A stretch of DNA of 56,048 nt from a virus (Duplodnaviria; Caudoviricetes), in the IMG/VR virus record IMGVR_UViG_3300031180_000001, positions 1 through 56,048 of that record. One strand, 5' to 3'. The stretch's first letter is position 1. Every line of letters starts with the position of its first letter. Below the pieces are notes generated by a model. That model was given only the letters and a program-made list of their open reading frames with translations, had not been told where the DNA came from and searched no databases. A program made the translations under genes and the position numbers. Below are positions 4,088-54,146 of the stretch, piece by piece.

Positions 4088-4522
4088 ATGAGCCTTGAGG
4101 ATCGCATCTCGGCACTAACCGAAGCCATTACGAAAAACAACGAACTTCTGAGTACGCTTATCAGCAAAGCGCAGGCTAAAGTTGAGGCTTCTGCCCCGAA
4201 GGCTGCTAAGGTTGAGGTTGAGGCCGAGGAGACCAAGGCAAAGGCCGACGATGCCGAGGAAGCACCTCGCCGTCGCGGTCGTAAGCCCAAGGCGGCCAAG
4301 ATTCCGAGCGTTTCTGACATGAAGGATGCTGCTAAGGCGTATCTCGACGCGGCTGATGATGAGGACGACTACAAGGCCCGCCGCGCGACCATCAAGAAGA
4401 TCGTCGAGAAGTTCGGGGTCGAGCGCTTTACCGAGATTGCCGAGGAGCATCGCGCTGAAGCCCTCGCCATGTTGAACGGTGAGGGTGACGGCGACGGAGA
4501 GGAGGAGGACGACGTAGTTTAA
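4088..4522 (+). CDS. Hypothetical low-complexity protein preceding DUF2800
   Basis: MSLEDRISALTEAI start, Ala/Lys-rich middle and helical C-domain, typical of this position in DUF2800/DUF2815 modules. Confidence 0.8.
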   Translation: MSLEDRISALTEAITKNNELLSTLISKAQAKVEASAPKAAKVEVEAEETKAKADDAEEAPRRRGRKPKAAKIPSVSDMKDAAKAYLDAADDEDDYKARRATIKKIVEKFGVERFTEIAEEHRAEALAMLNGEGDGDGEEEDDVV

Positions 4523-4530
4523 TCGTCCCC

Positions 4531-4793
4531 GGCGATACTCCTCATTGCCACGATAAACGGGGAGTATCGTCACCTTGGCGGTGTCCTGCTAGCCCCACCA
4601 CCTACCGAAGCCGGGGCACCGCCCGTAAGTCCCTCGGGTTTGGGCGAAGTTCCCGAGGGCCTTATGAAGTGGAGCGGGTGATAGAGGGGGTCCATCGCCC
4701 AGGTGTCTTTCCCAACCTGGGGGCGCTTATCGCCCGTGCGGCTCTTGCGGGGTGAGTCGCTTCGCGAAACCCGCTCCACGTCATAAGGCCCTC
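4531..4793 (+). ncRNA. Candidate structured RNA or cis-element
   Basis: Several stems, including a 25-bp one-mismatch inverted repeat at 4655-4679 / 4769-4793. Confidence 0.45.
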
Positions 4794-4810
4794 TCACAAG
4801 GAGAGAATGT

Positions 4811-5977
4811 GTGAAGGCGCACGCCCGTCTGTCGCCATCCGCGTCCTATCGCTGGCTCCGGTGCCCCGGTAGCGTGAACTTCCTTGAGAAAATCGAGGAA
4901 GATTTGACCGAGGGCACACATGCTGCTGAGGGGACGATCCTCCATTCCTTTTGTGAAGATGCCCTGAAAACAGGAAAGGACGCGTACTCCTACATCGGCG
5001 AGGTCCGCGAGCATGATGGCTACAAGCTAGAATTCGACGAAGAACTCGCCGAGATGATGCAGGAAGGGCTCGAATACATCGATTCGATCCCAGGTAAGCT
5101 ATTCGTCGAGTATCGTGTTGACCTCAGCCGTTGGATGCCGGGGCAATTCGGCACTCTCGACGTTGGAATTTGCGGAAAACGGCTAATTACCATTTTCGAT
5201 TGGAAATGGGGAATGCAGCCCGTTTCGCCGATAGAAAATACGCAGCTCATGTGCTATGCGCTGGGCTTTTGGGATAACGTCGCCCGAGAAATCACGGATG
5301 CCGAGAAATTCCGTCTGGTCATCTGGCAACCTAGAGCGCCCGGTGGCGGTGGTGAATGGGACGTTACTCTCGACGATCTCCTCGCCTTCGGAAAGAAGCT
5401 GAAAAAGAGCGCGGAAGCAACCTACGATAAGGACGCTCCGCGTATCCCCGGCCTTATCCAGTGTCAGTATTGCGAGGGCGCGAAAAGCTTGAAGTGCCCT
5501 GAGTACGTCGAATTCAACATGCGGATGGTTTTCGAGGATTTCGACGAACTCGACAAAGACATCGAGGATGATACCCCTCCAAGCCTTTCACCTACAGCTC
5601 TCACGCCAGAGCGTCGGAGCTATCTGCTTAAGCACCGACCGATGATCGATAAATTCTTCGATCGTCTCCAGGCGCAAGTCCTTGAGGATGCGCTTGCCGG
5701 TCGGCCGACGCCGGGTCTTAAGGCTGTGTACGGGCGCACGCCTCCCCGTAAATGGAAGGACCGTGAGGCGGCCGAAACGGCGCTCAGACGACTTCTCGGG
5801 AACGACGCCTATAATCTGAAACTCAAAACACCGACTCAAATTGAAAAGGAGCTGCCGCCGAAAATTTTCGCCAGATATGACCATTTAATCGAAAAAGGCT
5901 CGCCAAAGCCGGTGTTGGTTTCGGAGGACGACGCGAGACCACCAATCCCACCAATTACCGACCTTTTTGACGACTAA
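4811..5977 (+). CDS. DUF2800 family Cas4-like PD-(D/E)xK exonuclease
   Basis: HARLSPSASYRWLRCPGS, AAEGTILH, FGTLD, DWKWG and C-x2-C motifs. Confidence 0.9.
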   Translation: MKAHARLSPSASYRWLRCPGSVNFLEKIEEDLTEGTHAAEGTILHSFCEDALKTGKDAYSYIGEVREHDGYKLEFDEELAEMMQEGLEYIDSIPGKLFVEYRVDLSRWMPGQFGTLDVGICGKRLITIFDWKWGMQPVSPIENTQLMCYALGFWDNVAREITDAEKFRLVIWQPRAPGGGGEWDVTLDDLLAFGKKLKKSAEATYDKDAPRIPGLIQCQYCEGAKSLKCPEYVEFNMRMVFEDFDELDKDIEDDTPPSLSPTALTPERRSYLLKHRPMIDKFFDRLQAQVLEDALAGRPTPGLKAVYGRTPPRKWKDREAAETALRRLLGNDAYNLKLKTPTQIEKELPPKIFARYDHLIEKGSPKPVLVSEDDARPPIPPITDLFDD

Positions 5978-6008
5978 GAGTCACCTTTAACGTGTGGAGA
6001 AACGAGAA

Positions 6009-6791
6009 ATGGCAAAGAAAGAGGACCCAGCTCGGGTGAAATTGAAGAATGTGCGGTTGTCCTTCGCACATCTTTTCCGTCCCCAAGCATTCGGGGATGG
6101 TGAGGGTGAACCGAAGTACAACTGCAATTTCTTGATTGATCCGAGCACCAAGGAAGGCAAGGCCAATCTTCGCGCCATCGAGGACGCGATCGAATACGTG
6201 AAAAAGGAGAAATGGCCGAAGGGTGCGCCCAAGCTCAGCGAGGGTAAGATCTGCCTCCGTGATGGGAACAACACGGAGTACGACGGCTACGAGGATATGA
6301 TGTACGTGTCCGCGTCGAATGCCCGTCGTCCTCTCGTTCTGGATCGGGATAAGACTCCGCTTAATGAGGAGGATGGCGTGATTTATTCGGGCTGTTACGT
6401 TGACGCCATCATTCGCATTTGGGCGCAGGATAACAAGTACGGTAAGCGGATCAACGCTTCGCTTGAGGCTGTTCGTTTCCGCCGCGACGGTGAGGCGTTC
6501 GGTGCAGCTCCACCTGATCCCGATGAGTTCGATGATCTCGACGACGAGGATGAGGAGGATGAGGAGGATCGCCCGCGTCGAAAGCGCCGGGACGAAGATG
6601 AGGACGAAGACGATCGGCCTCGCCATCGTAAGAGTCGCGATGAGGACGATGAGGATGAGGACGATGATCGGCCTCGCCGTCGCAAGCGTCGGGACGAAGA
6701 CGATGAGGACGATGAGGATGAGGACGATGAGGACCGGCCGTCTCGGAACAGTCGGGCTCGCAAGCGGCGCGACGACGATGATGTGGTCTGA
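6009..6791 (+). CDS. DUF2815 family ssDNA-binding protein with long acidic/basic repeat tail
   Basis: VRLSFAHLF, LRDG, IYSGCYVDA and RDGEAFG motifs. Confidence 0.9.
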   Translation: MAKKEDPARVKLKNVRLSFAHLFRPQAFGDGEGEPKYNCNFLIDPSTKEGKANLRAIEDAIEYVKKEKWPKGAPKLSEGKICLRDGNNTEYDGYEDMMYVSASNARRPLVLDRDKTPLNEEDGVIYSGCYVDAIIRIWAQDNKYGKRINASLEAVRFRRDGEAFGAAPPDPDEFDDLDDEDEEDEEDRPRRKRRDEDEDEDDRPRHRKSRDEDDEDEDDDRPRRRKRRDEDDEDDEDEDDEDRPSRNSRARKRRDDDDVV

Positions 6792-6814
6792 TTGATCCGA
6801 AAGTTACTTTACAG

Positions 6815-6837
6815 ATCCCCGGCCTAGCGCCGGGGAT
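6815..6837 (+). terminator. Intergenic hairpin ATCCCCGGC-CTAGC-GCCGGGGAT
   Basis: Perfect 9-bp stem after the SSB gene, but no U-tract. Confidence 0.4.
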
Positions 6838-6861
6838 TGCCGTCTAACGGGGGGGCTGAAA

Positions 6862-8775
6862 TTGGTCGCCTACACGAAGGAAAAGATAACCTGGGTTCAC
6901 GACATTGAGATTTATCGGAATTACCTTCTGATCGGCTTTAAGCGGGTCGATACAGGAAAGGTCGTTTCGTGGGAAGTCGTCGGATCAAAGGGGTACTTGA
7001 GCGACGACGATATTGATGAGATCCGCGAGTTCATGCGGAAGTATCGCACGGTCGGATTCAACACCCGGCATTTCGACCTTCCAATTCTCTATTCGGCTCT
7101 CTCCGGTCTCCGGGTTATCGACCTCAAGAAAATTGCCGATGATATAATACTAGGTGGCCGCAAGTCCTGGGATATTGAGCGGGACTACGGTATAGAAGTT
7201 CCGCTCAGGCTCGACCATATCGACCTCATCGAAGTTGCACCTGGAAAGGCCAGCCTCAAAATCTACAACGGCCGCCTTCACGGTAAGCGGATGCAGGACT
7301 TACCGATCGATCCTGACGCCGTGCTCACCGATGAGGAGATTGAGGTTGTATACGACTACTGGAAAAACGACCTAGACGCTACGATCCTTCTTTACAACAA
7401 GCTGAAAGAGCAGTTGGACCTCCGTGCTTCTATGAGCACCGAGTATCGTCAAGATTTGCGGTCCAAGTCAGACGCTCAGATCGCCGAGGCTGTGATCCGT
7501 AGTGAAGTTGGCAAGCTCCTTGGCGAGAAGCCGAAGCGTCCAGAGATTCCACCGGGGACCAGATATAGCTACATCGTGCCCGATTTCATCCGGTTCAAGC
7601 ATCCAGATTTGCGCGATATTCTCGCGGAAATCGAGCGTTCATCGTTTCGGGTCGATAAAACCGGAAAAATCATAATGCCTCGCGCATTGGCCGATGCGAA
7701 CATTAAGATCGGCAATGGGATTTATCGTATGGGTATCGGTGGCCTCCACAGCTCAGAGAAGTGTCAGGCCATCGTCGCAAGAGATGATCAAATTCTCGTA
7801 GACAGGGACGTTACCTCTTACTACCCCATGATTATCCTCCGCTTGGGGCTTTATCCGAAGCACATGGGTAAGGCATTTCTCAAGGTCTATCGGGAGATCG
7901 TGAATCGTCGCCTCAAAGCCAAGGCCGAGGGCAACACAGTCGTTGCGAACTCCCTGAAAATCACGATCAACGGATCGTTCGGCAAGTTTGGCTCGCCCTG
8001 GTCGGCCCTGTACTCGCCCGACCTTCTCATCAGGACCACCATCACCGGCCAACTGTCCCTCCTCATGTTCATCGAGCGCCTGGAGCGTGCCGGTATCCGC
8101 GTGGTGAGCGCCAACACGGATGGCATCGTGATGCTCTGCGATAGGAAGCATGAGCACGTGATGAGAGAGGTTGTGGAGGAATGGGAACACGACACAGGAT
8201 TCGGGACTGAGGCGACGGAGTACAGCGCTCTCTACAGTCGTGATGTGAACAACTATATCGCAGTCAAGAAAGGTGGTGGGGTGAAGCTCAAGGGTGCTTA
8301 TGCCAAAGCGGGCTTCATGAAAAACCCTCAGAACGAAATTTGCATTGACGCTGTAATTGCGCACATTACGGAGGGAAAGTCACTGTCGGCGACAATTCGC
8401 GAGTGTCGTGACATCACCAAGTTCGTGACGGTGCGGCAGGTTCAAGGTGGTGCGATTTGTGGTGCTGAGAAGTATTACCGGGATCGCTACGGCAAGCGTG
8501 GTCAGCTCTTGAAGCCCGAGGAAATACTTGACTTCTCGAATGCGCAGTATCTCGGCAAGGCGATTCGTTGGTATTATTCTACAAACGGCGAGATCGGAAT
8601 TTTTTACAAGACTCCTAACAGATATGGAACTCACAACCTTGTGCCGAGGACGGAGGGGGCAAAACCTCTCATGGAGCTTCCTGACAAGTTCCCCGATGAT
8701 GTGGATTACGGCTGGTATATCCGCGAGGCGCGCTCCATCCTTCAAGAGATCGGCTTTGAGGAGTCCTTAATTTGA
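6862..8775 (+). CDS. Family B DNA polymerase with 3'-5' exonuclease
   Basis: Exonuclease motifs DIE, GFNTRHFD and YWKND; polymerase motifs DVTSYYP, LKITINGSFGK and ANTDG. Confidence 0.9.
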   Translation: MVAYTKEKITWVHDIEIYRNYLLIGFKRVDTGKVVSWEVVGSKGYLSDDDIDEIREFMRKYRTVGFNTRHFDLPILYSALSGLRVIDLKKIADDIILGGRKSWDIERDYGIEVPLRLDHIDLIEVAPGKASLKIYNGRLHGKRMQDLPIDPDAVLTDEEIEVVYDYWKNDLDATILLYNKLKEQLDLRASMSTEYRQDLRSKSDAQIAEAVIRSEVGKLLGEKPKRPEIPPGTRYSYIVPDFIRFKHPDLRDILAEIERSSFRVDKTGKIIMPRALADANIKIGNGIYRMGIGGLHSSEKCQAIVARDDQILVDRDVTSYYPMIILRLGLYPKHMGKAFLKVYREIVNRRLKAKAEGNTVVANSLKITINGSFGKFGSPWSALYSPDLLIRTTITGQLSLLMFIERLERAGIRVVSANTDGIVMLCDRKHEHVMREVVEEWEHDTGFGTEATEYSALYSRDVNNYIAVKKGGGVKLKGAYAKAGFMKNPQNEICIDAVIAHITEGKSLSATIRECRDITKFVTVRQVQGGAICGAEKYYRDRYGKRGQLLKPEEILDFSNAQYLGKAIRWYYSTNGEIGIFYKTPNRYGTHNLVPRTEGAKPLMELPDKFPDDVDYGWYIREARSILQEIGFEESLI

Positions 8776-8830
8776 ACTATACGTCACTTTATACGTGAAT
8801 TTAGCCGTTTATAGTGGCTGGGGGCTATAA

Positions 8831-9112
8831 ATGCAGGAATCCTACATCGAGAACAAAGTTTGCGAGTGGGCGAAGAAAAACGGCTGGCTCGTTCGCAAGC
8901 TTCAATGGATCGGCAGAGAAGGAGCCCCTGATCGTCTGTTTCTAAAAGCGGGTCGTTTCGTTTTGATCGAGTTCAAGCGCCCAGGTCAAAAGCCTCGCCC
9001 TTCCCAGCGCCTCGAAATCAAGCGGCTCCGGCAATACGGCGCGACTGTCGCCGTGATCGACAATGTTGAGGATGGAATTGCCTTTTTGAACGATGAGTAC
9101 GCCACTTCGTAA
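8831..9112 (+). CDS. VRR-NUC domain nuclease
   Basis: ESYIE, GAPDRL and IEFKRPG motifs. Confidence 0.9.
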   Translation: MQESYIENKVCEWAKKNGWLVRKLQWIGREGAPDRLFLKAGRFVLIEFKRPGQKPRPSQRLEIKRLRQYGATVAVIDNVEDGIAFLNDEYATS

Positions 9113-10619: not shown

Positions 10620-10707
10620 TATTGACACGTTCCGCCGTTTATGTCACCTTCAGCTTGTCATGGTTGCATGATGAGTGTCAGTGACGTGAAAGGGAGAATG
10701 CGGAACG

Positions 10708-11427
10708 ATGGTTACAATCAGGGTCAAGGATGATGCGCCCCATGCTGCGTTCGCGCGGCGTCTAAATCAGGTCATCGAAGAGTCGGACCTGCTGCCGCCC
10801 TATAATCAGGGCCGGTACACCTGGATTTCCGAACAGCTCCGCAAACAGTTCGGCGTTGAGGTCACCCGCGAGACTGTGCGTAAGTGGGTATGGGGAGAGA
10901 CAATCCCCAGGAACGAGAAGCTGAAAGCGCTCGCCAAGCTGTTCGATGTCGATGAGGGCTGGCTGGCATTCGGCATCACATCGGAAGTCAATAAAAAGGT
11001 GACTCCGAAAAAGATCCTCGCCGATAGTGGTGTGGTCAGCCTTGTTGCCGGTCTCATTCAGATGGACGGTGGCACCTGCGCTTTGCGCGAGGAGAAGGAT
11101 AAGAACGATTTCGTCGATCTCTACGCCATCGTCGATCGGCGGCAGCGTATGATCTCTGTGTGTCTCGGCGTTGAGGTTGCACCGGGGAAGTTCAAATTCT
11201 CGGTTCCAAATGAGTATGAGCAGTGCGTCAATATCGGCGTCGTGAGAACGGGCTTTGCGAGCTTTGACCTTCTCCTCCTGTCTCATGCTCAGATCAAGAG
11301 CTACGGCGATCGCCTTGGGCCACATGTCGATGTAACAGCGACAAAGCGCGAGAAGGGATGGATGATTGGGCGCACGCCCGTCCATCTCATCACCGATTTC
11401 AACGCCGACCTGTCGCGGGAGGGGTGA
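10708..11427 (+). CDS. XRE-family repressor (N-terminal HTH)
   Basis: FARRL...VTRETVRKWVWGETIPR...LAKLFDVDEGWLAFG; adjacent to attP and integrase. Confidence 0.8.
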   Translation: MVTIRVKDDAPHAAFARRLNQVIEESDLLPPYNQGRYTWISEQLRKQFGVEVTRETVRKWVWGETIPRNEKLKALAKLFDVDEGWLAFGITSEVNKKVTPKKILADSGVVSLVAGLIQMDGGTCALREEKDKNDFVDLYAIVDRRQRMISVCLGVEVAPGKFKFSVPNEYEQCVNIGVVRTGFASFDLLLLSHAQIKSYGDRLGPHVDVTATKREKGWMIGRTPVHLITDFNADLSREG

Positions 11428-11437
11428 ACTTCACGCC

Positions 11438-11680: not shown

Positions 11681-11692
11681 GGGAGGTGGGTC

Positions 11693-12880: not shown

Positions 12881-12892
12881 AACGTGACTATA

Positions 12893-12920: not shown

Positions 12921-13163
12921 ATGAGTTTCATCGTGCAGTCTATAGACGACATTAGACTTCTTCGGGTCGAACAGGTGCTAGAGGTCGTCCCTGTCAGCAG
13001 GGCGACACTCTATCGAATGATAAAGCAGGGGGAGTTCCCGGCACCGATCCACATCGGCTCCCTGTCGGTGTGGCCCTATTCCGAAGTCCAGAATTGGGTC
13101 AGCCGCGTGAAGCGGCGATGTAAGCCGTTCCGAGCAGATGATGGAGAGGAGGACATCATCTGA
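12921..13163 (+). CDS. alpA: AlpA-family excisionase / recombination directionality factor
   Basis: RLLRVEQV...SRATLYRMIKQGEFPAPI...W..SEV.NW. Confidence 0.9.
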   Translation: MSFIVQSIDDIRLLRVEQVLEVVPVSRATLYRMIKQGEFPAPIHIGSLSVWPYSEVQNWVSRVKRRCKPFRADDGEEDII

Positions 13164-13786
13164 TGCGGTTCGGATATGACGATGATGACCTGATCGGCGA
13201 TGTCCCTGATGAGGAGCAAGACGAGCGGATCAGCCTCCGTACGTCTGACGTTCACTCCGTCCTCGGTGGCGTTTCTGTGCCCTGGCTGATGAAAGCCTTC
13301 CGCATGGGGCGTCAAACTGTTGAGCGCAAGCTCGCGGGGTGTCGTCCGATCGGCCAAGGTAAGCACGGCACGCCGCTTTATGACTTGCCCGAGGCGGCAG
13401 CCTATCTGGTGAAGCCTCGCGCCACCATTGAACAGCTACTCGCGAGCCTCAAGCCTGACGAGTTGCCCGAGAAGCTGCGTGAGGCGTACTGGAATGCCAA
13501 GCTCAAGCAACAGCGTTACGAGGAACGCGCGGGCCACCTGTGGCGCACAGACCGGGTGATCGCTCTGTTCTCAGAGGTCCTACAGGAAATCCGGGTCAAG
13601 TTGCAGATCATTCCCGATCGTGTGGATCGTGAGACGGGCCTAACATCTCAGCAGTTAAAGTCACTTTCGAGGATCGTCGATGAGGTTCAGGACGACATCT
13701 ATCAGTACATCCTGAGCCTCAAGGATCGGAGCTACACGCCGAATCAGTTGGGTGAGGAATCCGAGGAAGTTGAGGATTTCGTGTGA
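13163..13786 (+). CDS. terS: Terminase small subunit (DUF1441 / Nu1-like)
   Basis: HTH region, YDLPEAAAYL and AYWNAKLKQQRYEERAGHLW; immediately upstream of TerL. Confidence 0.85.
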   Translation: MRFGYDDDDLIGDVPDEEQDERISLRTSDVHSVLGGVSVPWLMKAFRMGRQTVERKLAGCRPIGQGKHGTPLYDLPEAAAYLVKPRATIEQLLASLKPDELPEKLREAYWNAKLKQQRYEERAGHLWRTDRVIALFSEVLQEIRVKLQIIPDRVDRETGLTSQQLKSLSRIVDEVQDDIYQYILSLKDRSYTPNQLGEESEEVEDFV

Positions 13787-20950: not shown

Positions 20951-21244
20951 ATGAAGTTGATTGCCATTCATGAGATCGAATACTGCCTAAACAGGAAGCG
21001 GCACGCCGCGCGCCCTGGTCACCTTTTCGAGGTTGATGATGAGACTGGTGCGCGTCTCAAGAAGATGGGTGCTGCCCGCGATCCAGATGATGCCGAGCTG
21101 GCTCTTGAGGCCCTTCGCGCCGGTAAGATCCAGATCTCAAAGGATACCAAGGTTGAAAAGGAAGGCGAGGAGCAGCCGAAGCGTCGTGGCCGTCGTCGCG
21201 CCGAGGAAGGTGACGACTCCAACAAGGATGATGACGTGGTGTAA
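20951..21244 (+). CDS. Hypothetical protein downstream of capsid (FI-like position)
   Basis: RBS, position and low-complexity tail. Confidence 0.7.
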   Translation: MKLIAIHEIEYCLNRKRHAARPGHLFEVDDETGARLKKMGAARDPDDAELALEALRAGKIQISKDTKVEKEGEEQPKRRGRRRAEEGDDSNKDDDVV

Positions 21245-42905: not shown

Positions 42906-42907
42906 CT

Positions 42908-44128
42908 TTATTTCTGGAACTTCTCATGGAACGTTAAACGTGACAGAGAGACCGAACGAAAACCTCTATCAGCGTTATGGGATTCGAGATAGGCTTCGAT
43001 GAACGCCTGGGCGACCGGGATGACGATTGCATTGCCGTAACCGCGCAATCGTCCCACTCGGGCGGGAACCCCATCAGCCAACGGGAATGTGCCGGGTTCA
43101 ACTGGCCGCCACTTTCCATCCCGGCAGAAGAGCCAGTCAGCATCTCGCCAGAAACCGTTAGTCGGGCGGGCGCGTTGTCCATCCACAGGGCCAACGCCCC
43201 CAAGCCGTCGTGTGACAAGCTCGACCGCTTCCGATCCGGCATGGATTTGCGTTGAACGTCGATTTCCGTTGTTTTCGGCGTCGGCCATCCCGCCAAGGAA
43301 GCCGTTAGTCGGGCTGGGCCGGGTTCCGCATAGCTCTTCACCGCCTCGCTCAGGTAACCCGTATTTCGACCCGTTGCTGCCCGACTCGGCCGCATTCCGT
43401 CTCGTTCTATGTGATCCGTTGCGTTCGGAGTCGGCCAGCCTGCCAGAAGAGCAACCGTCCTGCGACTGCTGTCTGTGTTCCCTGCTGGATTGTATTGCCC
43501 AGGCTTGCCCGGATTGCCTGCCATCGGCGTGGGCCAGCCCGACAACGCCGCATCCGCTGGCAGCGCCCCACCGGCTTGGTTCGGTCCACCGTTCGTCCCG
43601 TCCGTCGCTCTCGGCGTGTTCCAGCCTTTCCGCGACGAAGTAGAGGCGTTGCCTGATGTGCGGGGCACCGACGCCCGCAGCGCAAATATCGACCGCCCCG
43701 AGGGCGTAACCCGCTCCCTCCAAGTCATCTGATACAAGGTCGAGCCAAGCAAGGCCGTCCTTGCTTGCAACCTGCTCACCAAAGATCGTGTCAGGCTGGC
43801 ACTGCTCGATGAGATGAAACCAGTGGGGCCACAAGTGCCGCTCGTCAGCAAACCCATCTCGGCGGCCTGCCGAGCTGAAAGGTTGACACGGGCAGCTTCC
43901 GGTCCAGACCGGTCGATCTTCTGGCCAACCCGCCAGTTTGAGAGCGAGGGGCCATCCTCCGATGCCTGCGAAGAAATGGCAATGAGTATAGCCTCGTAGA
44001 TCGTCCGGTCTGACATCCCGAATGTCCCTTGTGTCAACATCCCCGGAAGGTAGATGTCCAGCGGCAATCAACTCGGAAAGCCATGCAACAGCGTTTTTGT
44101 CGATCTCGTTGTAGTAGACGCCGCTCAT
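42908..44128 (-). CDS. C5-cytosine DNA methyltransferase, alpha polypeptide
   Basis: FFAGIGG (I), GSCPCQPFS (IV), GEQV (VI), PHIRQR (VIII) and [10 protein letters not shown] (X); motif IX is missing from this frame. Confidence 0.9.
42934..44067 (-). CDS. Overlapping alternative-frame beta polypeptide of the C5 MTase (true start uncertain)
   Basis: Four W(P/N)TP modules and motif-IX-like [18 protein letters not shown]. Confidence 0.7.
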
Positions 44129-44388
44129 ATCAAGTCATCGTCTTCGACGCGGGGCCTCGGATACTTCCTCGGCCGCGCTCCGATTGGACCTGGCTTGCTA
44201 AACACTTCCATGAGAGCCTTCACCGGATCTGATGCGCGCGCCGAGTGGTGCGGAGCCATGCCCGTCGCATCACGATAGATGGCGAGGAATTCACCCTGAC
44301 TCTCCGACACGGAGAAGTAGTTCAGCTCACCCTTCGCCGCGAGCGCCCGGATGACCGATTCCAAATCACGCGGCTTCGACATTCTCAC
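44125..44388 (-). CDS. Hypothetical protein
   Basis: Coupled to neighbours; ends EDDDLI. Confidence 0.7.
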   Translation of the reverse strand: MRMSKPRDLESVIRALAAKGELNYFSVSESQGEFLAIYRDATGMAPHHSARASDPVKALMEVFSKPGPIGARPRKYPRPRVEDDDLI

Positions 44389-45045: not shown

Positions 45046-45387
45046 TCACCACTCCGGCAAAACACGATACTCGACGGGGATTCCGAGCTTTTTGGCGTGC
45101 TCGATTCCTTTTCTCATTCCCTCGGAAATGCCGAGGTCGGTGTAGACGGCAACGAAATCCGCCTGAGCCATCCACACGAAACCGAGCCTCATCCCGACTT
45201 CACGCTCTGTCGGGTTTTTGTCGTCAAGCACCTGCGTATAAAGCGCATGACTTGCAAACGGTGCCTCTCCGCGCTGGATGCAGTCCTTCAGCGCAGCTTT
45301 GAGGTAATCTAGATTGCGCTGCGGATCGCCGCGAAACGGCGTTTCAACAATCACGCGTGGAATTGTGCGGAGCATAAGCGGTGCCAT
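45046..45387 (-). CDS. Nucleoside deoxyribosyltransferase-like Rossmann-fold protein
   Basis: VIVETPFRG, PFASHALYTQVLDD and GISEGMRK.I..A motifs. Confidence 0.7.
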   Translation of the reverse strand: MAPLMLRTIPRVIVETPFRGDPQRNLDYLKAALKDCIQRGEAPFASHALYTQVLDDKNPTEREVGMRLGFVWMAQADFVAVYTDLGISEGMRKGIEHAKKLGIPVEYRVLPEW

Positions 45388-45689
45388 CAGTCGTCCAACA
45401 TTCCGATTGCGTGCAGATACGTGTCGAGAATCGCCCGCTCTTCCTCGCGCTTTTCTCGCGACATCTTTCGGAGCTTGATGATCTGACGAATGGCTTTCGT
45501 ATCGAAGCCGTTCACCTTGGCCTCCTGATAGACCTCCTTGATGTCGTCCATAACCGCCTTCTTTTCTTCCTCCAGGCGCTCGATACGCTCGATGAACCTG
45601 AGAAGGCGCTCGCCGGTCGGATTGAGATTGTCGGCCTTGGTGACGCGGCGACCATCACCCGTACCGATCAGATCGTCGTTGTCAAGCAT
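45387..45689 (-). CDS. gapR: GapR-family nucleoid-associated protein (DUF2312)
   Basis: [16 protein letters not shown]...[25 protein letters not shown]. Confidence 0.92.
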
Positions 45690-45698
45690 AACGTCCTC

Positions 45699-46142: not shown

Positions 46143-46151
46143 GGCGATCTC

Positions 46152-46439: not shown

Positions 46440-46443
46440 TACC

Positions 46444-47442
46444 TCACTCCGCAGCTAAGTCGAGATGTCGATTATCACTCTCAATCTGCTTTCTGTATTG
46501 ACAGAATCCGACGAAGTTGCCGTGATGCTCAGGGCACAACCAACCGATAATCGGCTCCCAATCGTCGGCGCGAGCAACGTGCTCTGCCGGTGAGGCGTGT
46601 ATGGGCTCGGCCGCCAGCAGCTTGTCGTGCAGCTTCTTTGCCCGCTCCAGGGTCATGTCAAAACCCTCGACCGTTTTGTAGCTGGTGGAGGCACACCGGG
46701 CGACGGAGAGCTTGATAAGGTCACCAATGGCAACCTCTCGATTCACAAAGTTAGTTACGACAATCTCCTGTTCGTGCGGATAATGGTCAACATCCTGCTC
46801 GGCGACTTCGATGAATCGATCCTCATCCCGCACGAACGGCAGGTGCCATTCGCCCGGCATAAGGGTTTGCACCGTGCTCTCGTCCTCCAGGCACTTGCGG
46901 ATCTCGCGGGCGAGCATACGGATGTGGGGCTCAGCGTCGGGATGATCCCTAAGCTCCAGAAAGTTATCCCACTCCGTGGAGCTGACCACGACTGTGATGT
47001 GGGCGAAAGGCTCCAAGAGCCTGTTGACCACCTGTTTGTGGTAGCCCGCTGCGTCGAAGGCTCGGGCCACTTCGATGGCGCGATCGCGAGCCTCCAGCCA
47101 CGCTTCCTCGCGGGTGAGCGTCTTCGGAACGGGATACTCCCCGATACCAGTTACGGCCATTTCCTCGCCCAGCTCCACCGGAGCATTGCACTCCTCAAGG
47201 GCCTGCATCCCGCGCTGATTCTTCCCCCAATAAATCGGCATGGCGGGATCGCGAAGGATGTCGTCGATGAGCTTTTCGACGGGGATGGCCCGTGAGCTGG
47301 CCGCGTTGCGCGAGAATACTCGGTGCGTCATCAGCTCGGCATGAATCCAGCGCGGATAACGCAACAACAGCGTCGTGAGAATTTTATCCGGCCGTGCGGC
47401 GTTGCGCGACCGAAGAACCGTGGTGGCCGAGATCGTGGTCAA
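46444..47442 (-). CDS. thyX: Flavin-dependent thymidylate synthase (ThyX-like)
   Basis: HAELMTHRVFSRNAASSRAIP, HKQVVNRLLEPF, NFLELR and HASPAEH motifs. Confidence 0.85.
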   Translation of the reverse strand: MTTISATTVLRSRNAARPDKILTTLLLRYPRWIHAELMTHRVFSRNAASSRAIPVEKLIDDILRDPAMPIYWGKNQRGMQALEECNAPVELGEEMAVTGIGEYPVPKTLTREEAWLEARDRAIEVARAFDAAGYHKQVVNRLLEPFAHITVVVSSTEWDNFLELRDHPDAEPHIRMLAREIRKCLEDESTVQTLMPGEWHLPFVRDEDRFIEVAEQDVDHYPHEQEIVVTNFVNREVAIGDLIKLSVARCASTSYKTVEGFDMTLERAKKLHDKLLAAEPIHASPAEHVARADDWEPIIGWLCPEHHGNFVGFCQYRKQIESDNRHLDLAAE

Positions 47443-48350
47443 ATCAGTTCCTCCTCTTCAATCCCGAGCAATTCGACGATCCGCTCGTATTCCTTTTCCG
47501 AGATGAACAGTCCCACGAGCCCCTTCTCACCTTTCCAGTTCACGTGAACCTCAGCATTCTCGAAAATGGAGCGCAGCTCCTTTTTCAGATTGGGGCGCTT
47601 TTCCTTGGGCTCGGCCACGGGCTCCGTTTCGTCAGCGTCGGCGTCATCCTCCACGTCGTCATCCTGGGGCTCGGCCTTCTTGTCCTCGCCAGCGGCCTCC
47701 TTGACGTGCTTTTTCGTCGCCCGTGTCTTGCCCTTCTCGATCGCCAGGGCGACCGCTGCTTTCAGCAACTCGGCAGCCCGGTCGCCGTACTCCTTGACGG
47801 TCTCGATCGCGAGCGTTGCCGAGATGAGCCCGGCACGCACGAGCGCGATGATCTCTTTCGGCGCTTCGATGAGCGTGATGAGATGCCCGACATAGACGCG
47901 GGTCACACCGGCCTTACGGGCGATGTCTGAATCGGACCAGCCAAGATCGACAAGCCGCTTGAACACGGTCGCCATCTCAAGTGGTGACAGGGGCTTGCCG
48001 GAGTTACGGAGGATCTGCCCGAATATGCGATCGGCCTCGCTCGCGTCCTTATCGCCCATCCGCACCGGCAAGAGCATGTCGGCCGACGCGCCATATTCCG
48101 AGATGGCCTTTTGCGCGGCGAAATAGCGACAGTGCCCATCCTCGATGTAGAGCTTGCCGTCCTCCATGTAGACCGTGAGCGGCTGCTTTACGCCTTCCTC
48201 GGCGATCGACTTGGCGAGCATGTCGATGTGCTCGACGTTCTCGGGATCATCGAGAATCCGGCTATTCCAGCCGTCTTTCACGCACAGGTCGTTGATGCTG
48301 ACCCGATAGAGGTCGCTCCGACCCTTCGCAATTTCCTTGATTGAAGCCAT
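47439..48350 (-). CDS. ParB/Srx N-terminal domain + HTH protein
   Basis: LAKSIAEEGVKQPLTV...IEDGHCRY; NSGKPLSPLE; HTH SDIARKAGVTRVYV. Confidence 0.8.
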   Translation of the reverse strand: MASIKEIAKGRSDLYRVSINDLCVKDGWNSRILDDPENVEHIDMLAKSIAEEGVKQPLTVYMEDGKLYIEDGHCRYFAAQKAISEYGASADMLLPVRMGDKDASEADRIFGQILRNSGKPLSPLEMATVFKRLVDLGWSDSDIARKAGVTRVYVGHLITLIEAPKEIIALVRAGLISATLAIETVKEYGDRAAELLKAAVALAIEKGKTRATKKHVKEAAGEDKKAEPQDDDVEDDADADETEPVAEPKEKRPNLKKELRSIFENAEVHVNWKGEKGLVGLFISEKEYERIVELLGIEEEELI

Positions 48351-48507
48351 TGTGTTCTCCCGTTTACGCAAAACAGTCAGCGGACTGACCAAACAATCAT
48401 GACAACGGCGAAACAAGCTGCGATGAAAGTGGCTGTTTCATAAGCGTCCATTTTCATCCTCACTCGTCACCCGACGGTCGCGATAATGACTCGCTTACTG
48501 TGACTTG

Positions 48508-48996: not shown

Positions 48997-49034
48997 ACCA
49001 TATTAGCGTGCGAAGGCTCGTCTAAAGTGACAGA

Positions 49035-49775
49035 TCAGTAAGCCTTGCCGCCTGCTTTGAGCCGGTTTTCGGGCTTGTGATCGGGTCGGTTTGCGTTATA
49101 GGTCACCTTGTCGGCGAAGACATCGCCTGCGGGATGCTCCTCGTTGTCGCTTCCGAGGAGATCGAGAATCCGGATCATGGCGTCACATAACTCAACGCGG
49201 AAGGCAGGACGATGCGGCAGCTTATCGTCAACGGCCGACTTTCGGTGACCCTCCATCGCACGGCTGATGGACGCGTGCAGCTCAAGAAGCGCCTTTTGCT
49301 CGAAACCGACCGATTTCCAGGCGGCATCAACCGCTTCCTCAATGTTGTAAAGGGTGAACGCGTCCCATTTCTTCGCCTCAGCCGCCTCGCTGATCTCGGA
49401 ATGGATGAGGCACAACAGCTCTCCGACGTTGCGTTTGCCGTGTAGATCCTCACCTGTCTTGAGATCGGTCCACCATCCGGCGAGGACGTTGCGTTGATGG
49501 ATTTCCTTGGCGAGCCGATTGACGGCCTCCCTCATCCATTCGATGTCACTGTTAGGCTCGGGATCACCGGCTTTGCCAATGAAGCGCATCGAGCGATGCC
49601 AGTCGCTCGCCGGTCGGCTGTAAATGTGGCCGTTGACGACGTTGCGGTAAACGACCGTCGTGGGAAAATTCTGGTTATCGCTACTCGCGTTTGTAATGAG
49701 CATCACGCGATAAATGTTGCCGTCACGGTGCTCCCAAAGAGAGCCGATTTCCGGCAGATCAACAGGCTCACTCAC
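49035..49775 (-). CDS. DUF1653-like + MazG-like NTP pyrophosphatase fusion
   Basis: WEHRDGNIYRV...VVY...YSRP; ELLCLIHSEISEA, VELCDAMIRILD and KVTYNANR. Confidence 0.75.
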   Translation of the reverse strand: MSEPVDLPEIGSLWEHRDGNIYRVMLITNASSDNQNFPTTVVYRNVVNGHIYSRPASDWHRSMRFIGKAGDPEPNSDIEWMREAVNRLAKEIHQRNVLAGWWTDLKTGEDLHGKRNVGELLCLIHSEISEAAEAKKWDAFTLYNIEEAVDAAWKSVGFEQKALLELHASISRAMEGHRKSAVDDKLPHRPAFRVELCDAMIRILDLLGSDNEEHPAGDVFADKVTYNANRPDHKPENRLKAGGKAY

Positions 49776-49803
49776 TTCAACGATCTCCTCACTTTAACCG
49801 ACT

Positions 49804-50010
49804 TTACTCTACACCGGATTCATCTGTCACTTCCTCAACGAGGAGGACGTTTTTGGCACCCACCATCTCAAGGTAATGGGCGTAATCCTTGTAGCCCGCA
49901 TCCCGAGCAAGGGCGTTCAACGCATCTTCTTTGGTCTCGCCCTCATAGACGCCGAGGAAAACACCGGAGACTTGATTGCTGATATAGAACTTTTTCATCA
50001 CACCCTCCAC
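49804..50010 (-). CDS. Hypothetical protein
   Basis: SGVFLGVYEGETKEDALNALARDAGY; RBS present. Confidence 0.65.
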   Translation of the reverse strand: MEGVMKKFYISNQVSGVFLGVYEGETKEDALNALARDAGYKDYAHYLEMVGAKNVLLVEEVTDESGVE

Positions 50011-50078
50011 CTTTCAACTGACGAAGCGAGAATATTCGTTATCGTGCGGATCATCACTCTTGTACTGACCGTACTTCA

Positions 50079-50300
50079 TCAGATCAGCGTCGCCTTCTCG
50101 ATAGCCCTTTCCACCTGCCTCCGGTGTTCCTTAGCAATCGCGACCATACGCTCTATGATTTCATCCGAAGGCTGATATTCTTCCTTTACCCAGCGGTGAA
50201 TTTGGCGGGTGTTGAGACCGAGGGCGCGTGCCGTGGCATTCTGCCATCGAGGCCCGAACACAGCTTCGGCAAGGAGAATGAGGCGTTCCCTGTTAGTCAT
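50079..50300 (-). CDS. Small HTH protein
   Basis: FGPRWQNATARALGLNTRQIHRW. Confidence 0.75.
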   Translation of the reverse strand: MTNRERLILLAEAVFGPRWQNATARALGLNTRQIHRWVKEEYQPSDEIIERMVAIAKEHRRQVERAIEKATLI

Positions 50301-50611
50301 CGGAGTAGATCGTTTGGCAGCACAACAGCAGGTCCAACAATGTTGCGGAAGGCTATCAGAGTTGCCTTCTGATTTAAGGGCCGACCCTTGAGCAAACCCT
50401 CTTCATCCACAACCATGATGTGCCCTGGCAGTGTAGGTGTTGGAACAAGTTCTATGAACCCGCCGACCGCTTGTTGCAGCTCCTCCAACGAAGGTTCGGA
50501 ACCAACGAACTCAAAATCCTGAACACGACCATCCTCAAGGATTATAGCGCACACTCGACGTGTCATAACGTGGTAAGGCGTTCTCCTTGTTGCGTTGCGT
50601 CTATTATACAT
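50297..50611 (-). CDS. DUF3846-like protein
   Basis: SLEELQQAVGGFIELV...VVDEEGLLKGRPLN..AT. Confidence 0.8.
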   Translation of the reverse strand: MYNRRNATRRTPYHVMTRRVCAIILEDGRVQDFEFVGSEPSLEELQQAVGGFIELVPTPTLPGHIMVVDEEGLLKGRPLNQKATLIAFRNIVGPAVVLPNDLLR

Positions 50612-50650
50612 AGACTACCAAGATGATTCAAGTTATGTGTAAAGTGACTT

Positions 50651-51088
50651 TCAGCGGGTGTACTCCTCGCGCTTGACAGGCGTGACGTGAACAAACTTCT
50701 TGCGGTCCGGCATACGGTTGTCGAGGATCGACTGAACAACTTCGCGATCCGTCGTGACAACGTATACGCGAAGCGTTCCTTCCTTCTCACCCTTGCGCTC
50801 TCTGACTTCCAAGCATGAGACAGAGAAGCTGATAACGTCGTGGCGATCTCCCTTAAGGGGCTTGACATTGATGACCTTACCGCAAATCCAGCCGCGCTGG
50901 GCAAGCACGGTAGCAACCAGATCGTATCGCGGATCGTAGGTCTCTTTCACATTCTTGTCCGCGACCTCCAATTTCATTGGCTTCGGGGAAGCAACTCCCT
51001 CACGAACGTGCTTTGCCTCAATCGCGTGAAAGGCTACCGCAGCTCCCAAGCCAATAATGATTGCAGCGGGGATCAAGAATCTCATCAT
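50651..51088 (-). CDS. Hypothetical secreted or membrane-anchored protein
   Basis: Signal-like N-terminus; AAGGAGG RBS. Confidence 0.7.
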   Translation of the reverse strand: MMRFLIPAAIIIGLGAAVAFHAIEAKHVREGVASPKPMKLEVADKNVKETYDPRYDLVATVLAQRGWICGKVINVKPLKGDRHDVISFSVSCLEVRERKGEKEGTLRVYVVTTDREVVQSILDNRMPDRKKFVHVTPVKREEYTR

Positions 51089-51193
51089 GCCAGACCTCCT
51101 TTCAGGGACGCCTAATAGTGTGAAGCGGTTAATCGAAATTTACTCTTGCCCCTCAAGCCTCTGAGCGCAGCTCGATCGAGACGTTCGATTTGA

Positions 51194-51841
51194 CTACACA
51201 CTATGACTTTCTTTTTCATGGCTACGCACATACATTCCTTTTCCAAAAGCCTCAGCGTCGGAGCGATAAACGGCACGAGACCATTCAATGTATCGCTCCG
51301 GCATTTCTGCGTTGATTGCCGGTCGTGTATCGAGTAGAGCCCGAAGCCGAATGTATTCGGTTTCGAGCCAACCCATCCGATCCGGTGGATTGAAAAATCG
51401 GACCTTGACGCCAGCCTCGCTCAACATGTCGCTCGCTGCCGTTATCTCCTCGGCGAGCGCCATGAACTTTCCAGGCCCGTAGACGATTTCAACGATTCCC
51501 GCCTGGATGATCGTGCGGGTACATGCTGCGCACGGGTGATGCGTCACGTACAGCGTGCAACCCTCTGTACGGATTCCCTGGCGTGCAGCGAAGGCGATGA
51601 CGTTCGCCTCTGCGTGACTGGCAAAAAGGTATTTTTGCGGCCGCTCGAAACGCTTCGGTAAGTCATGCACTCCTATCGGAGGCCCGTTATAGCCGGTGAG
51701 ACGAACCTCACCGGCAGGACCAACAAGGCACGCGCCGACTTTCGTGGTATCCTTCGACCGCGTTGCTGCGTGGCGCGCAAAACCCATGAAATACTCATCT
51801 TTACTCGGGCGATCGAACATCACGGTTTGCTCCGTGCTCAT
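51194..51841 (-). CDS. dCMP deaminase
   Basis: TKVGAC, GYNG, HAEAN and PCAAC zinc-binding motifs. Confidence 0.92.
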   Translation of the reverse strand: MSTEQTVMFDRPSKDEYFMGFARHAATRSKDTTKVGACLVGPAGEVRLTGYNGPPIGVHDLPKRFERPQKYLFASHAEANVIAFAARQGIRTEGCTLYVTHHPCAACTRTIIQAGIVEIVYGPGKFMALAEEITAASDMLSEAGVKVRFFNPPDRMGWLETEYIRLRALLDTRPAINAEMPERYIEWSRAVYRSDAEAFGKGMYVRSHEKESHSV

Positions 51842-51904
51842 AGCATCCTCAAGTTAGACTCATTTTTCGTGGTGCGTCAATGTCAACGTGACGCTTTATC
51901 GAAA

Positions 51905-52312
51905 CTATCCGCTCACACGATCGAGCCACATATCGAAATGCCTCGCGCAGTACACCTTAAAGGCGCTTTCATTCTCGAATGGCTTCTCCCCTTCGACGTA
52001 GATCACGCCGTTGTAGTCCTCCACCGCCCAAAACGTGCAGCAGTCGCCAAGCCCTTCAATCTTATCGAAACGGGAATTCGCCTCACCATCAACGCTGATC
52101 GGATGGATGTAATAAGCATCGTTGAAAAGCTGATTCCTCCTTGTTCGCACCGGGTTCACGTCCCAGGCCACGATCGGACGCCTGATTATCGTGATTTCAC
52201 AACCAAGCTTGTTGTCTCCCTCCTTCACAATGGCCTCAATCATCTTGAAGCCTGGGTGTGCAGCGACGATGTGAGTGATGGAGTTGTTTGTTGCGCCATC
52301 ATCCCCCAGCAT
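51905..52312 (-). CDS. Hypothetical protein
   Basis: 135-aa ORF with RBS in the leftward operon. Confidence 0.65.
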   Translation of the reverse strand: MLGDDGATNNSITHIVAAHPGFKMIEAIVKEGDNKLGCEITIIRRPIVAWDVNPVRTRRNQLFNDAYYIHPISVDGEANSRFDKIEGLGDCCTFWAVEDYNGVIYVEGEKPFENESAFKVYCARHFDMWLDRVSG

Positions 52313-52509
52313 TTTAGCAACTCCGCTCCAGAAAAATAAGCAACGGCTACGAGCACAACGATTCCCACCGTGAGCGCCAAAACAGTATTGGCCAGCTTAT
52401 CTATTTTCGCGTTAGCCTCCTCCATTGCCACGTTGAGGTATTCCAGCTCCTCACCTAACCTTCTGATTGCATCCCTCAGATCGTCGTCGATTTTTTCAAT
52501 GCCCCTCAT
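52240..52509 (-). CDS. Hypothetical coiled-coil + TM protein
   Basis: MRGIEKIDDDL... start overlaps the upstream stop; TM segment VLALTVGIVVLVAVAYF. Confidence 0.55.
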   Translation of the reverse strand: MRGIEKIDDDLRDAIRRLGEELEYLNVAMEEANAKIDKLANTVLALTVGIVVLVAVAYFSGAELLKCWGMMAQQTTPSLTSSLHTQASR

Positions 52510-52685
52510 TTTACGAGCTTGCGGTAATAGTTCCTGTTTGTGTTTTTGTACTTCTCGTAATTGTAGCGCATCGCCTTCCGTCGTCGCGTCTCGCTGAGAA
52601 TGTATGACTCGACAAGTGTTCGTGGCTCCTCCAAGTCTTTCAGATACCAATGGGGGTCATGCTTCGGCTCTACTTCCTCCTTCAT
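52506..52685 (-). CDS. Hypothetical 59-aa protein (not in the ORF track)
   Basis: MKEEVEPKHDPHWYLKDLEEP...YYRKLVK*; GAGAGG RBS; ATGA coupling to the next gene. Confidence 0.55.
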   Translation of the reverse strand: MKEEVEPKHDPHWYLKDLEEPRTLVESYILSETRRRKAMRYNYEKYKNTNRNYYRKLVK

Positions 52686-52932
52686 TTACTAGCCTCTCGT
52701 ATGCACGCATCGCGTCGATTCCCATTTTGATGACGACGGCCGCTTGCGCCATTTGCTCACCCATTTGCCGATGCAGCGGATTGCTCTTGCACGCGTCCAT
52801 CAGATCGTTGATGCGACTTACGATCGATTTCAGATCGACTTCAATCGCATCAAGAATTTCTTTCTTGGAGGTTTCGGCGGAGTCTTGCAATTTCACGGTC
52901 CTTTCTCTGAATAATCGCGCGGAGGCTTTCAT
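52657..52932 (-). CDS. Hypothetical protein
   Basis: Helical ORF overlapping 52850-53110. Confidence 0.45.
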   Translation of the reverse strand: MKASARLFRERTVKLQDSAETSKKEILDAIEVDLKSIVSRINDLMDACKSNPLHRQMGEQMAQAAVVIKMGIDAMRAYERLVNEGGSRAEA

Positions 52933-53110
52933 TGTTGACTCTGAGGGCCGTCATCATGCGCCTCAGTTGCTCAGTATCTTCGGCGATGTGCTCGCCGATA
53001 TTCACGCGAAACCGGATGCGCCGCTTAAAAGCCTGCCAGAAGGTATTGAGAGCCCATCCCAGCCAAACAGCGCTCCCGTACCATCCGATTTCCCAAAGCC
53101 ATTCGATCAT
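52850..53110 (-). CDS. Hypothetical membrane / coiled-coil protein
   Basis: Trp-rich hydrophobic N-terminus; start coupled to the upstream stop. Confidence 0.6.
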   Translation of the reverse strand: MIEWLWEIGWYGSAVWLGWALNTFWQAFKRRIRFRVNIGEHIAEDTEQLRRMMTALRVNNESLRAIIQRKDREIARLRRNLQERNS

Positions 53111-53265
53111 AGGAACAGCGCGCCAACGGTCAGAATGAAGAAACCGCTCAGTGAGCCGATGAATGTTGATCCAATGCTCAAATTATCGTAGTCGCGGCCA
53201 AGACAGTACATTTGCATCGCCCCGAGAACGATAATTCCGAAGGCAATAATGAAGTGCATCAACAT
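53107..53265 (-). CDS. 52-aa two-TM membrane protein (not in the ORF track)
   Basis: MLMHFIIAFGIIVLGAMQ...GFFILTVGALFL*; coupled to the ligase stop and to the next start. Confidence 0.6.
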   Translation of the reverse strand: MLMHFIIAFGIIVLGAMQMYCLGRDYDNLSIGSTFIGSLSGFFILTVGALFL

Positions 53266-54146
53266 CAGATCAGCTCCTCCTCATCCCGGAACGATTTGAA
53301 GACTGGCAGCAACGGGCGGCCTTGTGACCCGACGCGCTGATACTTGAATGTGACGAGTTTCCCTAACAGTGACTCTCGCTCACGCCAAAAACGCTTGCGC
53401 TGGGTGTCGGTAAATCCCGTGCCAAGCTCGAAATGCACACCCTTCCAATTCAATATCAGCGCCCCGAGCTTTCCGGTAGGAACAAGTCCAGCTTTGGCCT
53501 TCGACCGCTTGGCATAGCCGCGCTCGTCACGGGTTTGCTCGTTCGTGTTGGACATCTGCTCGACGAAGCCGACAATGCGCGCCTCATCGTCGTTGAAGGG
53601 CTTGATCCGCAGCAGGTAGCCCTCACGCACAGTCGAGCGGCCGAACTTGTATTTGCCATCAGGGCAACGCAGGATCACACCGTCGAGGCCCTTCTCCGTA
53701 AGGCCGCCATCTGAAAGGAACTTTTCATAGTCGGCCAGCTCGTCGAGGTCATGGACAACCGTGGACTCGACACGCTCGCCCGCTCGGATTTCCTCGTAAC
53801 GCAGCTTGTAGGGCAAGTGTGGATTCTCGAAATGGTCGAAGCTGTGAAACACAAACTCGGGCTCACCGTCGCGGCTCTGTACCTTCGACTGGATTGTGCT
53901 CAGCTCGTCGGGCTTACCGTTTGTGTACGTGATGATTTCCCCGTCGTGATAGTGATACTTCGGATCACTGAGAATTTGCCGAATGTAGAGGTTCGGGATC
54001 GGCTTGAGGCTCCGGTTCAAGGCACCCTTACCCGGCACCACGACGCACCGGATGCCGTCGTGCTTCGGCTGAGCAATGAGCGGGAAGCTCAGTCGATCCC
54101 ACTCGACGTTGACCGCGAGCATAGGCTTGAAATCAGACATCATCAT
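53265..54146 (-). CDS. lig: ATP-dependent DNA ligase
   Basis: FKPMLA, KHDGIR (KxDG), DGEI, DGVILR, YKFGRST, GTGFTD, VTFKY and PVFK motifs. Confidence 0.92.
   Translation of the reverse strand: MMMSDFKPMLAVNVEWDRLSFPLIAQPKHDGIRCVVVPGKGALNRSLKPIPNLYIRQILSDPKYHYHDGEIITYTNGKPDELSTIQSKVQSRDGEPEFVFHSFDHFENPHLPYKLRYEEIRAGERVESTVVHDLDELADYEKFLSDGGLTEKGLDGVILRCPDGKYKFGRSTVREGYLLRIKPFNDDEARIVGFVEQMSNTNEQTRDERGYAKRSKAKAGLVPTGKLGALILNWKGVHFELGTGFTDTQRKRFWRERESLLGKLVTFKYQRVGSQGRPLLPVFKSFRDEEELI

Follow-up and report, generated by a model that had tools for sequence, protein, structure and literature searches.

Acidic-hydrophobic C-terminal tags shared by DNA-acting proteins of a Casjensviridae-like temperate phage

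The stretch of DNA analyzed here, hereafter called the window, comprises 56,048 bases and is the whole of the IMG/VR virus record IMGVR_UViG_3300031180_000001. It represents a Casjensviridae-like phage of 56 kb, which is temperate because an integrase is encoded, and nine of its proteins end in a short acidic run followed by a hydrophobic tip, the C-terminal tag considered below. A simple gene caller of our own, in which the start is that of the longest open reading frame (ORF), gave 64 genes; whether a protein is called tagged hinges on the stop codon only and not on the choice of start. Family scans were made with PHROGs for 39 of the 64 proteins and additionally with Pfam for 19 of those 39. 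The replication module consists of a PrimPol-PriCT2-DUF3987 primase-helicase, a DUF2800 exonuclease, a gp2.5/Enc34-type single-stranded DNA-binding protein (SSB), a family B DNA polymerase (PolB), a VRR-NUC protein and an SNF2-type helicase. Other scanned genes encode an integrase, the small and large terminase subunits (TerS and TerL), a nucleotide-metabolism block, two DNA methyltransferases, a ParB-like protein and an ATP ligase. The portal-protease region and the polymerase gave only distant matches to Casjensviridae and related siphoviruses, and PolB reaches at most about 49% identity to that of a cultured phage, with Alteromonas phage R7M and Achromobacter phage AchV4 as the best matches. 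A GapR DNA-binding domain protein (PF10073, E 4e-31; 45387-45689, minus strand) and a GcrA domain protein (PF07750, E 1e-10; 54143-54748, minus strand) are also present. GapR and GcrA are regulators typical of alphaproteobacteria, and on the strength of the two encoded domains the host is probably an alphaproteobacterium. The nearest genome match was a degraded prophage on a Mesorhizobium sediminum contig (L145; PolB 59%), which is decaying, with PolB split over two ORFs and a truncated SSB.

Five of the tagged genes lie on the plus strand ahead of the capsid gene. The first (4067-4522) encodes a small replication-module protein of the phrog_7721 family with C-terminus EEEDDVV (tag EEDDVV, 4502-4519); its matches in an Atlas look-up were unnamed viral clusters only, and its homologues in two related phages, G001 and G157, bear the tip of their own genome. 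The SSB (PF10991; 5994-6791) ends in DDDDVV (6771-6788) after a long disordered tail of acidic and basic blocks, and PolB (6862-8775) ends in FEESLI (8755-8772), in which EESLI is a five-residue extension past the conserved ILxxxG end. An AlpA/excisionase-type helix-turn-helix (HTH) protein (12921-13163) carries GEEDII (13143-13160), and homologues of it end in ALDDEL and VADLLG in the relatives G158 and G160, respectively. TerS (DUF1441, phrog_141; 13163-13786) ends in EVEDFV (13766-13783). After the capsid gene, a 97-residue protein with no family match (20951-21244, plus strand) has a basic stretch followed by the tag KDDDVV (21224-21241). The remaining three are on the minus strand: an 87-residue protein with no family match (44125-44388) upstream of a DNA methyltransferase, with EDDDLI (44128-44145); the ParB-like protein (phrog_1033; 47439-48416), with EEEELI (47442-47459) and a homologue in the relative G002 that ends in TDDDDL; and the ATP-dependent DNA ligase (53265-54263), with DEEELI (53268-53285), which sits six residues past an OB domain match ending at residue 326 of 332.

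Related motifs also occur inside three proteins. TerS contains DDDDLIGDVP near its N-terminus (residues 6-15; 13178-13207, plus strand), the primase-SF3 helicase (gene 1351-3657) contains EDELIGDVP in the linker between PriCT-2 and DUF3987 (residues 318-326; 2680-2706, minus strand), and the GapR-domain protein contains DDLIG at residues 5-9 (45663-45677, minus strand). The copies in TerS and the primase share an identical eight-residue motif. In relatives the primase has the tip at its C-terminus, unlike the internal copy in the window. A preliminary description of the window, made without database searches, had listed the nine C-termini and these three internal copies and had stated that most carriers act on DNA and that capsid, portal and tape measure proteins lack the tag. 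Every listed C-terminus and every internal copy was found in its place, all six carriers of known function are DNA-binding by family assignment, and neither the portal, the major capsid protein, the tape measure protein nor TerL ends in the tag.

The tail of the SSB spans about 75 residues and includes about 3.5 copies of a 54-bp repeat (6540-6756) that encodes alternating acidic (DEDEDEDD) and basic (RPRRRKRR) blocks; in an SSB alignment this insertion is absent from the relatives. Blocky charge patterns of this kind are typical of self-associating proteins. In an AlphaFold2 (AF2) prediction of the full SSB the tail had a per-residue confidence (pLDDT) of about 52, and so is predicted to be disordered, and the core was above 90. 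Separately, the exonuclease (4811-5977, plus strand) ends in ITDLFDD, its homologue in the degraded Mesorhizobium prophage ends in IIDLFDDD, and exonucleases of other lineages end in DLF or DLFS; the window sequence may be a buried form of the tag, missed by the search pattern.

The strict pattern [DE]{2,}.?[LIVF][IV] occurs at the C-terminus of nine of the 64 called proteins, above what amino acid composition predicts: 2000 shuffles of whole proteins gave a mean of 0.08 tagged proteins (maximum 2), when only the last 12 residues were shuffled the mean was 0.20 (maximum 3), and the rate of the pattern within proteins predicts 0.19 C-terminal tags. Because this pattern was picked after the data had been seen, a pattern-free test was added, in which residues were reduced to a four-class alphabet and over-representation was scored for each of the 256 classes of the last four residues. 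Ends of the form acid-acid-hydrophobic-hydrophobic were found in 8 of 64 proteins with 0.13 expected (binomial p 8.8e-13, or 2e-10 when corrected for the 256 classes), and the smallest class p across 2000 shuffles was 5e-6. As a further control, the tag was found on only one of 408 non-gene ORFs of at least 40 residues. The shared tag is real and not a product of chance. The single tagged non-gene ORF (10762-11385, minus strand, 207 residues) ends in FDDLI and lies antisense to an HTH regulator gene (10708-11427); this end is probably due to chance, because the gene on the plus strand has a family match.

A tag at the end of genes could in principle be a by-product of DNA or translation, with acidic codons such as GAGGAG serving as the ribosome-binding site of an overlapping gene, or with short patches of DNA copied from gene to gene. 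Six of the nine tagged genes overlap the next start, several of the acidic runs are written GAGGAG, and a Shine-Dalgarno-like 4-mer lies within the last 21 nucleotides in seven of the nine. However, three tagged genes have no start within 55-288 nucleotides, most coupled genes are untagged (19 of 25; association of tag with coupling, Fisher p 0.137), the D-rich tags use GAC and GAT, which are not Shine-Dalgarno-like, and the hydrophobic tip is left unaccounted for at the DNA level. Codons at the tag ends also differ, Val-Val being written GTA GTT, GTG GTC and GTG GTG. Across all pairs of the nine window tags, the same codon was used for identical residues 36 times with 33.0 expected given the codon usage of the phage (z 0.73). 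Codon sharing at this chance level rules out spread of the C-terminal tags of the window by gene conversion and argues that they are maintained at the protein level; orthologues elsewhere keep the tag with different codons and different tips. For the C-terminal tags the by-product explanation is largely refuted, and we consider it very improbable overall. The internal copies differ in one respect that does favor copying of DNA: TerS and the primase share an exact match of 17 nucleotides, which for identical codons given the peptide has a probability of 0.005. This repeat (2681-2697, minus strand, and 13190-13206, plus strand) spans the LIGDVP part of both motifs, and the pair may reflect recent copying of the motif from one gene to the other or a site acting at the DNA level. 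Packaging (pac) sites often lie within TerS genes.

Relatives were collected to follow the tag outside the window. A single-protein scan of IMG/VR gave only two. The two closest relatives in IMG/VR are G001 and G002 (PolB 52%), and the sample was extended to PolB homologues with their surroundings at 80 viral and 63 genome loci and to five more whole virus records (G156 to G160). These relatives are about 50% identical, which weakens all of the evolutionary tests reported below. No protein of G001 or G002 matched the strict pattern. An acidic run followed by a single Leu was found at the C-terminus of 9 of 73 proteins in G001 and 9 of 77 in G002, the carriers including PolB, SSB, exonuclease, primase, TerS, the ParB-like protein and the homologue of the 4067-4522 protein. 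Taken together, the seven related whole phage genomes have four to nine proteins each with a tip typical of the genome. A loose pattern matched 8 of 71 proteins in G156 (about four of them judged true DDL[VI] tips), 7 of 73 in G157 (tip D[DE]xL), 4 of 47 in G158 (DDEL), 6 of 59 in G159 (DDI) and 5 of 68 in G160 (DLLG), with shuffle means of 0.5-0.8 for these five genomes. Orthologous carriers are the SSB, exonuclease, primase, TerS, the AlpA-like and ParB-like proteins, a methyltransferase, phrog_7721, phrog_7200 and, sometimes, PolB; an RdgC-like protein (phrog_724) is tagged in three genomes with three different tips. In G159 the last six residues of primase and TerS are the same, DDYDDI. 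In none of the genomes of eight relatives does the SNF2 helicase, TerL or the capsid protein bear the tip, nor does VRR-NUC in the seven that have a homologue. The portal is tagged once among the eight, in G159 (L174; 20863-22551, plus strand), where it ends in ENDDDI. As to whether homologues in other phages lack the tag, the preliminary description's question, the answer is divided: many orthologues are tagged with a tip of their own, but the trait is patchy and not family-wide, with many loci giving no match. In the genus of G003, 151 genomes were searched for a PolB like that of G001; the three distant matches did not reveal the host of G001.

These observations support a tag that is under protein-level selection, is carried by DNA-acting proteins and has lineage-specific tips. 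The reading we favor, with a probability of roughly one half, is that the tag is a short docking peptide read by a shared partner. The docking motif would consist of an acidic run and one or two hydrophobic residues, usually with a free C-terminal carboxylate, on flexible protein ends. The tag sits on the SSB, polymerase, ligase, TerS, the ParB-like and AlpA-like proteins and three uncharacterized proteins, with internal copies in the primase, TerS and the GapR-like protein, so that the carriers could dock on the same site or sites of a partner during replication, recombination and packaging. In such a mechanism the acidic run would steer the peptide electrostatically toward a basic surface, and a small pocket would receive the hydrophobic tip and carboxylate. 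The first candidate partners, from the analogy with T7 and Enc34, would be the DNA-binding groove of the SSB and the polymerase, and docking there might let enzymes find the SSB on single-stranded DNA or displace it locally. We infer a common reader, one that co-evolves with the tip. The preliminary description had proposed a phage-wide addressing tag that recruits proteins to one hub or compartment or sets their proteolytic fate, and this is borne out in part. A common docking peptide predicts the pattern seen, and protein-level selection, DNA-acting carriers, recurrence among orthologues and lineage-specific tips all agree with addressing; no hub, compartment or protease was identified.

The principle that several proteins with one type of acidic-hydrophobic end serve one partner is already published for T7 and T4; the papers on these and the other systems compared here are cited from partial text. 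In phage T7, the tail of gp2.5 competes with single-stranded DNA and contacts a basic patch on the polymerase (PMC10359462, PMC12339929), a peptide mimicking the tail of gp4 has been seen on the polymerase (PMC12339929), and the terminal Phe of these tails is required, according to titles in a reference list (PMC12339929). The window SSB resembles this system in being of the gp2.5/Enc34 type (PF10991, E 5.4e-42; phrog_112, E 8e-58) with a disordered acidic tail and a hydrophobic end, and in relatives the primase-helicase bears the same tip as the SSB. It differs in that the tip is aliphatic (V, I or L; the SSB ends in VV) and not Phe, in that the window primase ends in KESE and has the motif only internally, and in that about nine proteins are tagged, including the polymerase itself, the ligase, the small terminase and the ParB-like and AlpA-like proteins. 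The window polymerase is of family B and the helicase of superfamily 3, neither of which is related to the T7 proteins. Enc34-type SSBs have an acidic, disordered tail, and in crystals these tails occupy the beta-sheet groove of neighbors (PMC5686142). In T4, interchangeable acidic-hydrophobic C-termini of gp43, gp33 and gp55 bind the gp45 clamp (PMC2988020), so that here too functionally unrelated phage proteins have a common C-terminal epitope, with gp45 as the hub. The window has more clients, packaging proteins among them, and no clamp or clamp-loader family was found among the 39 of 64 proteins scanned, the remaining 25 being mostly of the virion module. Bacterial SSBs share an acidic tail, a hydrophobic end and a free carboxylate, and their tail is a docking peptide; however, one tail has many readers there, many tails here imply few readers, and the phage SSB is not a PF00436 protein. 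The preliminary description held that a shared tag of this kind was undescribed in these phages. In agreement with this, the literature found, part of it as abstracts, contained no tag carried by some nine proteins, packaging and regulatory proteins among them, no such use in Casjensviridae-like phages and no lineage-specific tips.

The identity of last residues within a locus was compared with that in permuted loci for 80 distinct loci. The last residue of the SSB equaled that of the exonuclease in 37% of loci versus 9% when permuted (p<0.0002), that of the primase in 39% versus 12%, that of PolB in 26% versus 8%, and that of TerS in 56% versus 23% (n 9, p 0.02). The helicase, a control with the same phylogeny, gave 3% versus 4%. 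Because relatedness inflates permutation tests, tip changes were also mapped by parsimony on a PolB tree of 70 taxa. The SSB tip changed 29 times on this tree, and 13 of 27 changes of the exonuclease tip fell on branches with an SSB change (background 0.30, p 0.034). Switches on the same branch to the residue of the SSB numbered four for the exonuclease, two for the primase, five for PolB and none for the helicase. Concerted switching of tips is thus modestly supported by these sequence comparisons, with no more than a handful of independent events.

Several results weigh against a shared docking peptide. Its candidate reader was not found, either by a scan for co-changing columns or in the single-chain AF2 fold. 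The tree-aware test is only modest: changes of the primase tip (4/10) and of the PolB tip (12/35) on SSB-change branches were not significant, and the last residue of the SSB is matched in a minority of taxa (exonuclease 18/66, primase 9/27, PolB 14/70). Many of the 80 viral loci have no match to the loose pattern, and the cultured relative AchV4 has no strict and three loose matches among 72 proteins. The window tip is itself loose (VV three times, LI four times, II and FV once each), and in G158 and G159 the SSB tip is unlike that of the other carriers. Lastly, the tags of G156 and of G157 share codons above expectation (z 3.2 and 3.7, the pairs being non-independent), and some spread of the tag by DNA copying is possible in these two genomes.

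An R/K-rich stretch lies at most about 15 residues before the tag in five of the nine carriers, which also tells against a shared reader and fits an explanation in which each tail acts within its own protein. The tail would then be an acidic mimic of DNA that folds back on the basic DNA-binding surface of the same protein and tunes its affinity or specificity, with no common reader. Such a role agrees with the DNA-binding nature of all six carriers of known function and with the published systems, in which, according to the portions consulted, removal of the Enc34 tail alters discrimination between double- and single-stranded DNA, and the T7 tail competes with single-stranded DNA (PMC5686142, PMC10359462). 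However, action within single proteins leaves unexplained why tips are uniform within a genome and different between genomes, and why TerS and the primase contain an identical internal motif. AF2 confidence at the SSB tip was not raised as fold-back would suggest, and the model gave no sign of the tip folding back, although this evidence is weak. We regard this explanation as unlikely, though it is the strongest of the alternatives to a shared docking peptide.

A reader could instead be supplied by the host, for example as a protease or an adaptor by which protein lifetime is set, as a chaperone or as the beta clamp, and the versions of the tip would then reflect the hosts. Free hydrophobic C-termini are classic protease and clamp signals. 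In the partial text available, the clamp-binding motif is given as Q-phi-x-[L/M]-[F/L] or Q-phi-x-[L/M]-x-[F/L], has acidic flanks and in polymerases frequently lies at the very C-terminus (PMC11139829); four of the nine tags end in L-I, as the last two positions of the motif permit. The canonical motif was nevertheless rejected: none of the nine has Gln at position 1 or an aliphatic residue at position 2, four of nine have L at position 4, and the motif does not accommodate tips such as DDVV, DDEL and DDL. Mimicry of the host SSB was rejected as well, on the evidence of hosts of related prophages. The preliminary description had likened the tag to the E. coli SSB tip DDDIPF, a docking peptide; the analogy holds in principle, but in three bacterial genomes with related prophages the host SSBs all end in DDDIPF while the prophages inside use DLLG (L141) or D[LM]I (L114), the third prophage (L138) having given no tails. 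A similar DDL[IV] tip is common to the Stutzerimonas prophage L114 and to the present phage, whose GcrA and GapR domains are alphaproteobacterial, and the tip therefore fails to follow host class. That phages from distinct classes of host have similar tips weakly suggests that the reader is encoded by the phage rather than by the host, and we hold a host reader to be doubtful, somewhat more so than tails acting within their own proteins.

By analogy with known systems, our guesses for the reader of a docking peptide are, in order, the DNA-binding groove of the gp2.5-like phage SSB, the polymerase and a host protein. The co-change scan compared 1873 columns of the SSB, PolB, SNF2 helicase, exonuclease and primase with the 29 changes of the SSB tip, and the tip column itself (p 2e-9), the positive control, was the sole one to stand out. 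Helicase column 186 came second (p 6e-4), at the level expected by chance for that many columns, and the 6.5% of helicase columns at p<0.05 is not meaningful; the power of the scan is low because a set of about 50% identity is too divergent. Prediction of a complex of PolB, the SSB core (residues 1-190) and the last 42 residues of the 4067-4522 protein gave ipSAE values of 0.00 and 0.02, with a mark of 0.32 and no control runs, values that speak neither for binding nor against it. A homologue of the HTH regulator (10708-11427) was considered as a companion of tag-rich loci and rejected; because many tag-rich loci lack a match, its pattern was put down to relatedness.

A bolder version of the docking peptide is a private code, in which the tip of a lineage brings proteins of replication, recombination, DNA modification, regulation and packaging together on a single hub made by the phage, and the pocket of the reader co-evolves with the tip so that co-infecting relatives avoid cross-talk. 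In the present phage, an assembly or condensate based on the SSB may be this hub, with the alternating acidic and basic blocks of the SSB tail as its driving force. We offer this version tentatively and think it rather improbable as a whole. If one partner does read all of the tails, it would be an organizing center of replication, recombination and packaging that has so far gone undescribed, in a large and widespread group of siphoviruses (Casjensviridae-like phages and relatives). The tag would be a cheap sequence handle for predicting which uncharacterized phage proteins work at the DNA factory, of use here because three carriers are without known function, and could serve to fish out the hub and to study peptide-pocket co-evolution across lineages. 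Should there be no common reader, the finding of a strong and unexplained constraint on how phage DNA-binding proteins end would still stand.

Two further groups of loci have tips of another kind. The primases of L094 and L111 end in DGFDDIPF and DGDNEPPF, which resemble bacterial SSB tips, and the phage SSBs of the same loci have the tails FDDEEEFL and EFDEFDEF; some lineages may address host SSB partners instead. At L123 and L124, in a metagenome-assembled genome labeled uncultured Bartonella sp., the SSB and TerS share the tip, DDDGEIKI and DFQGKIEI. Because this tip is not purely acidic, the shared element need not be an acidic run.

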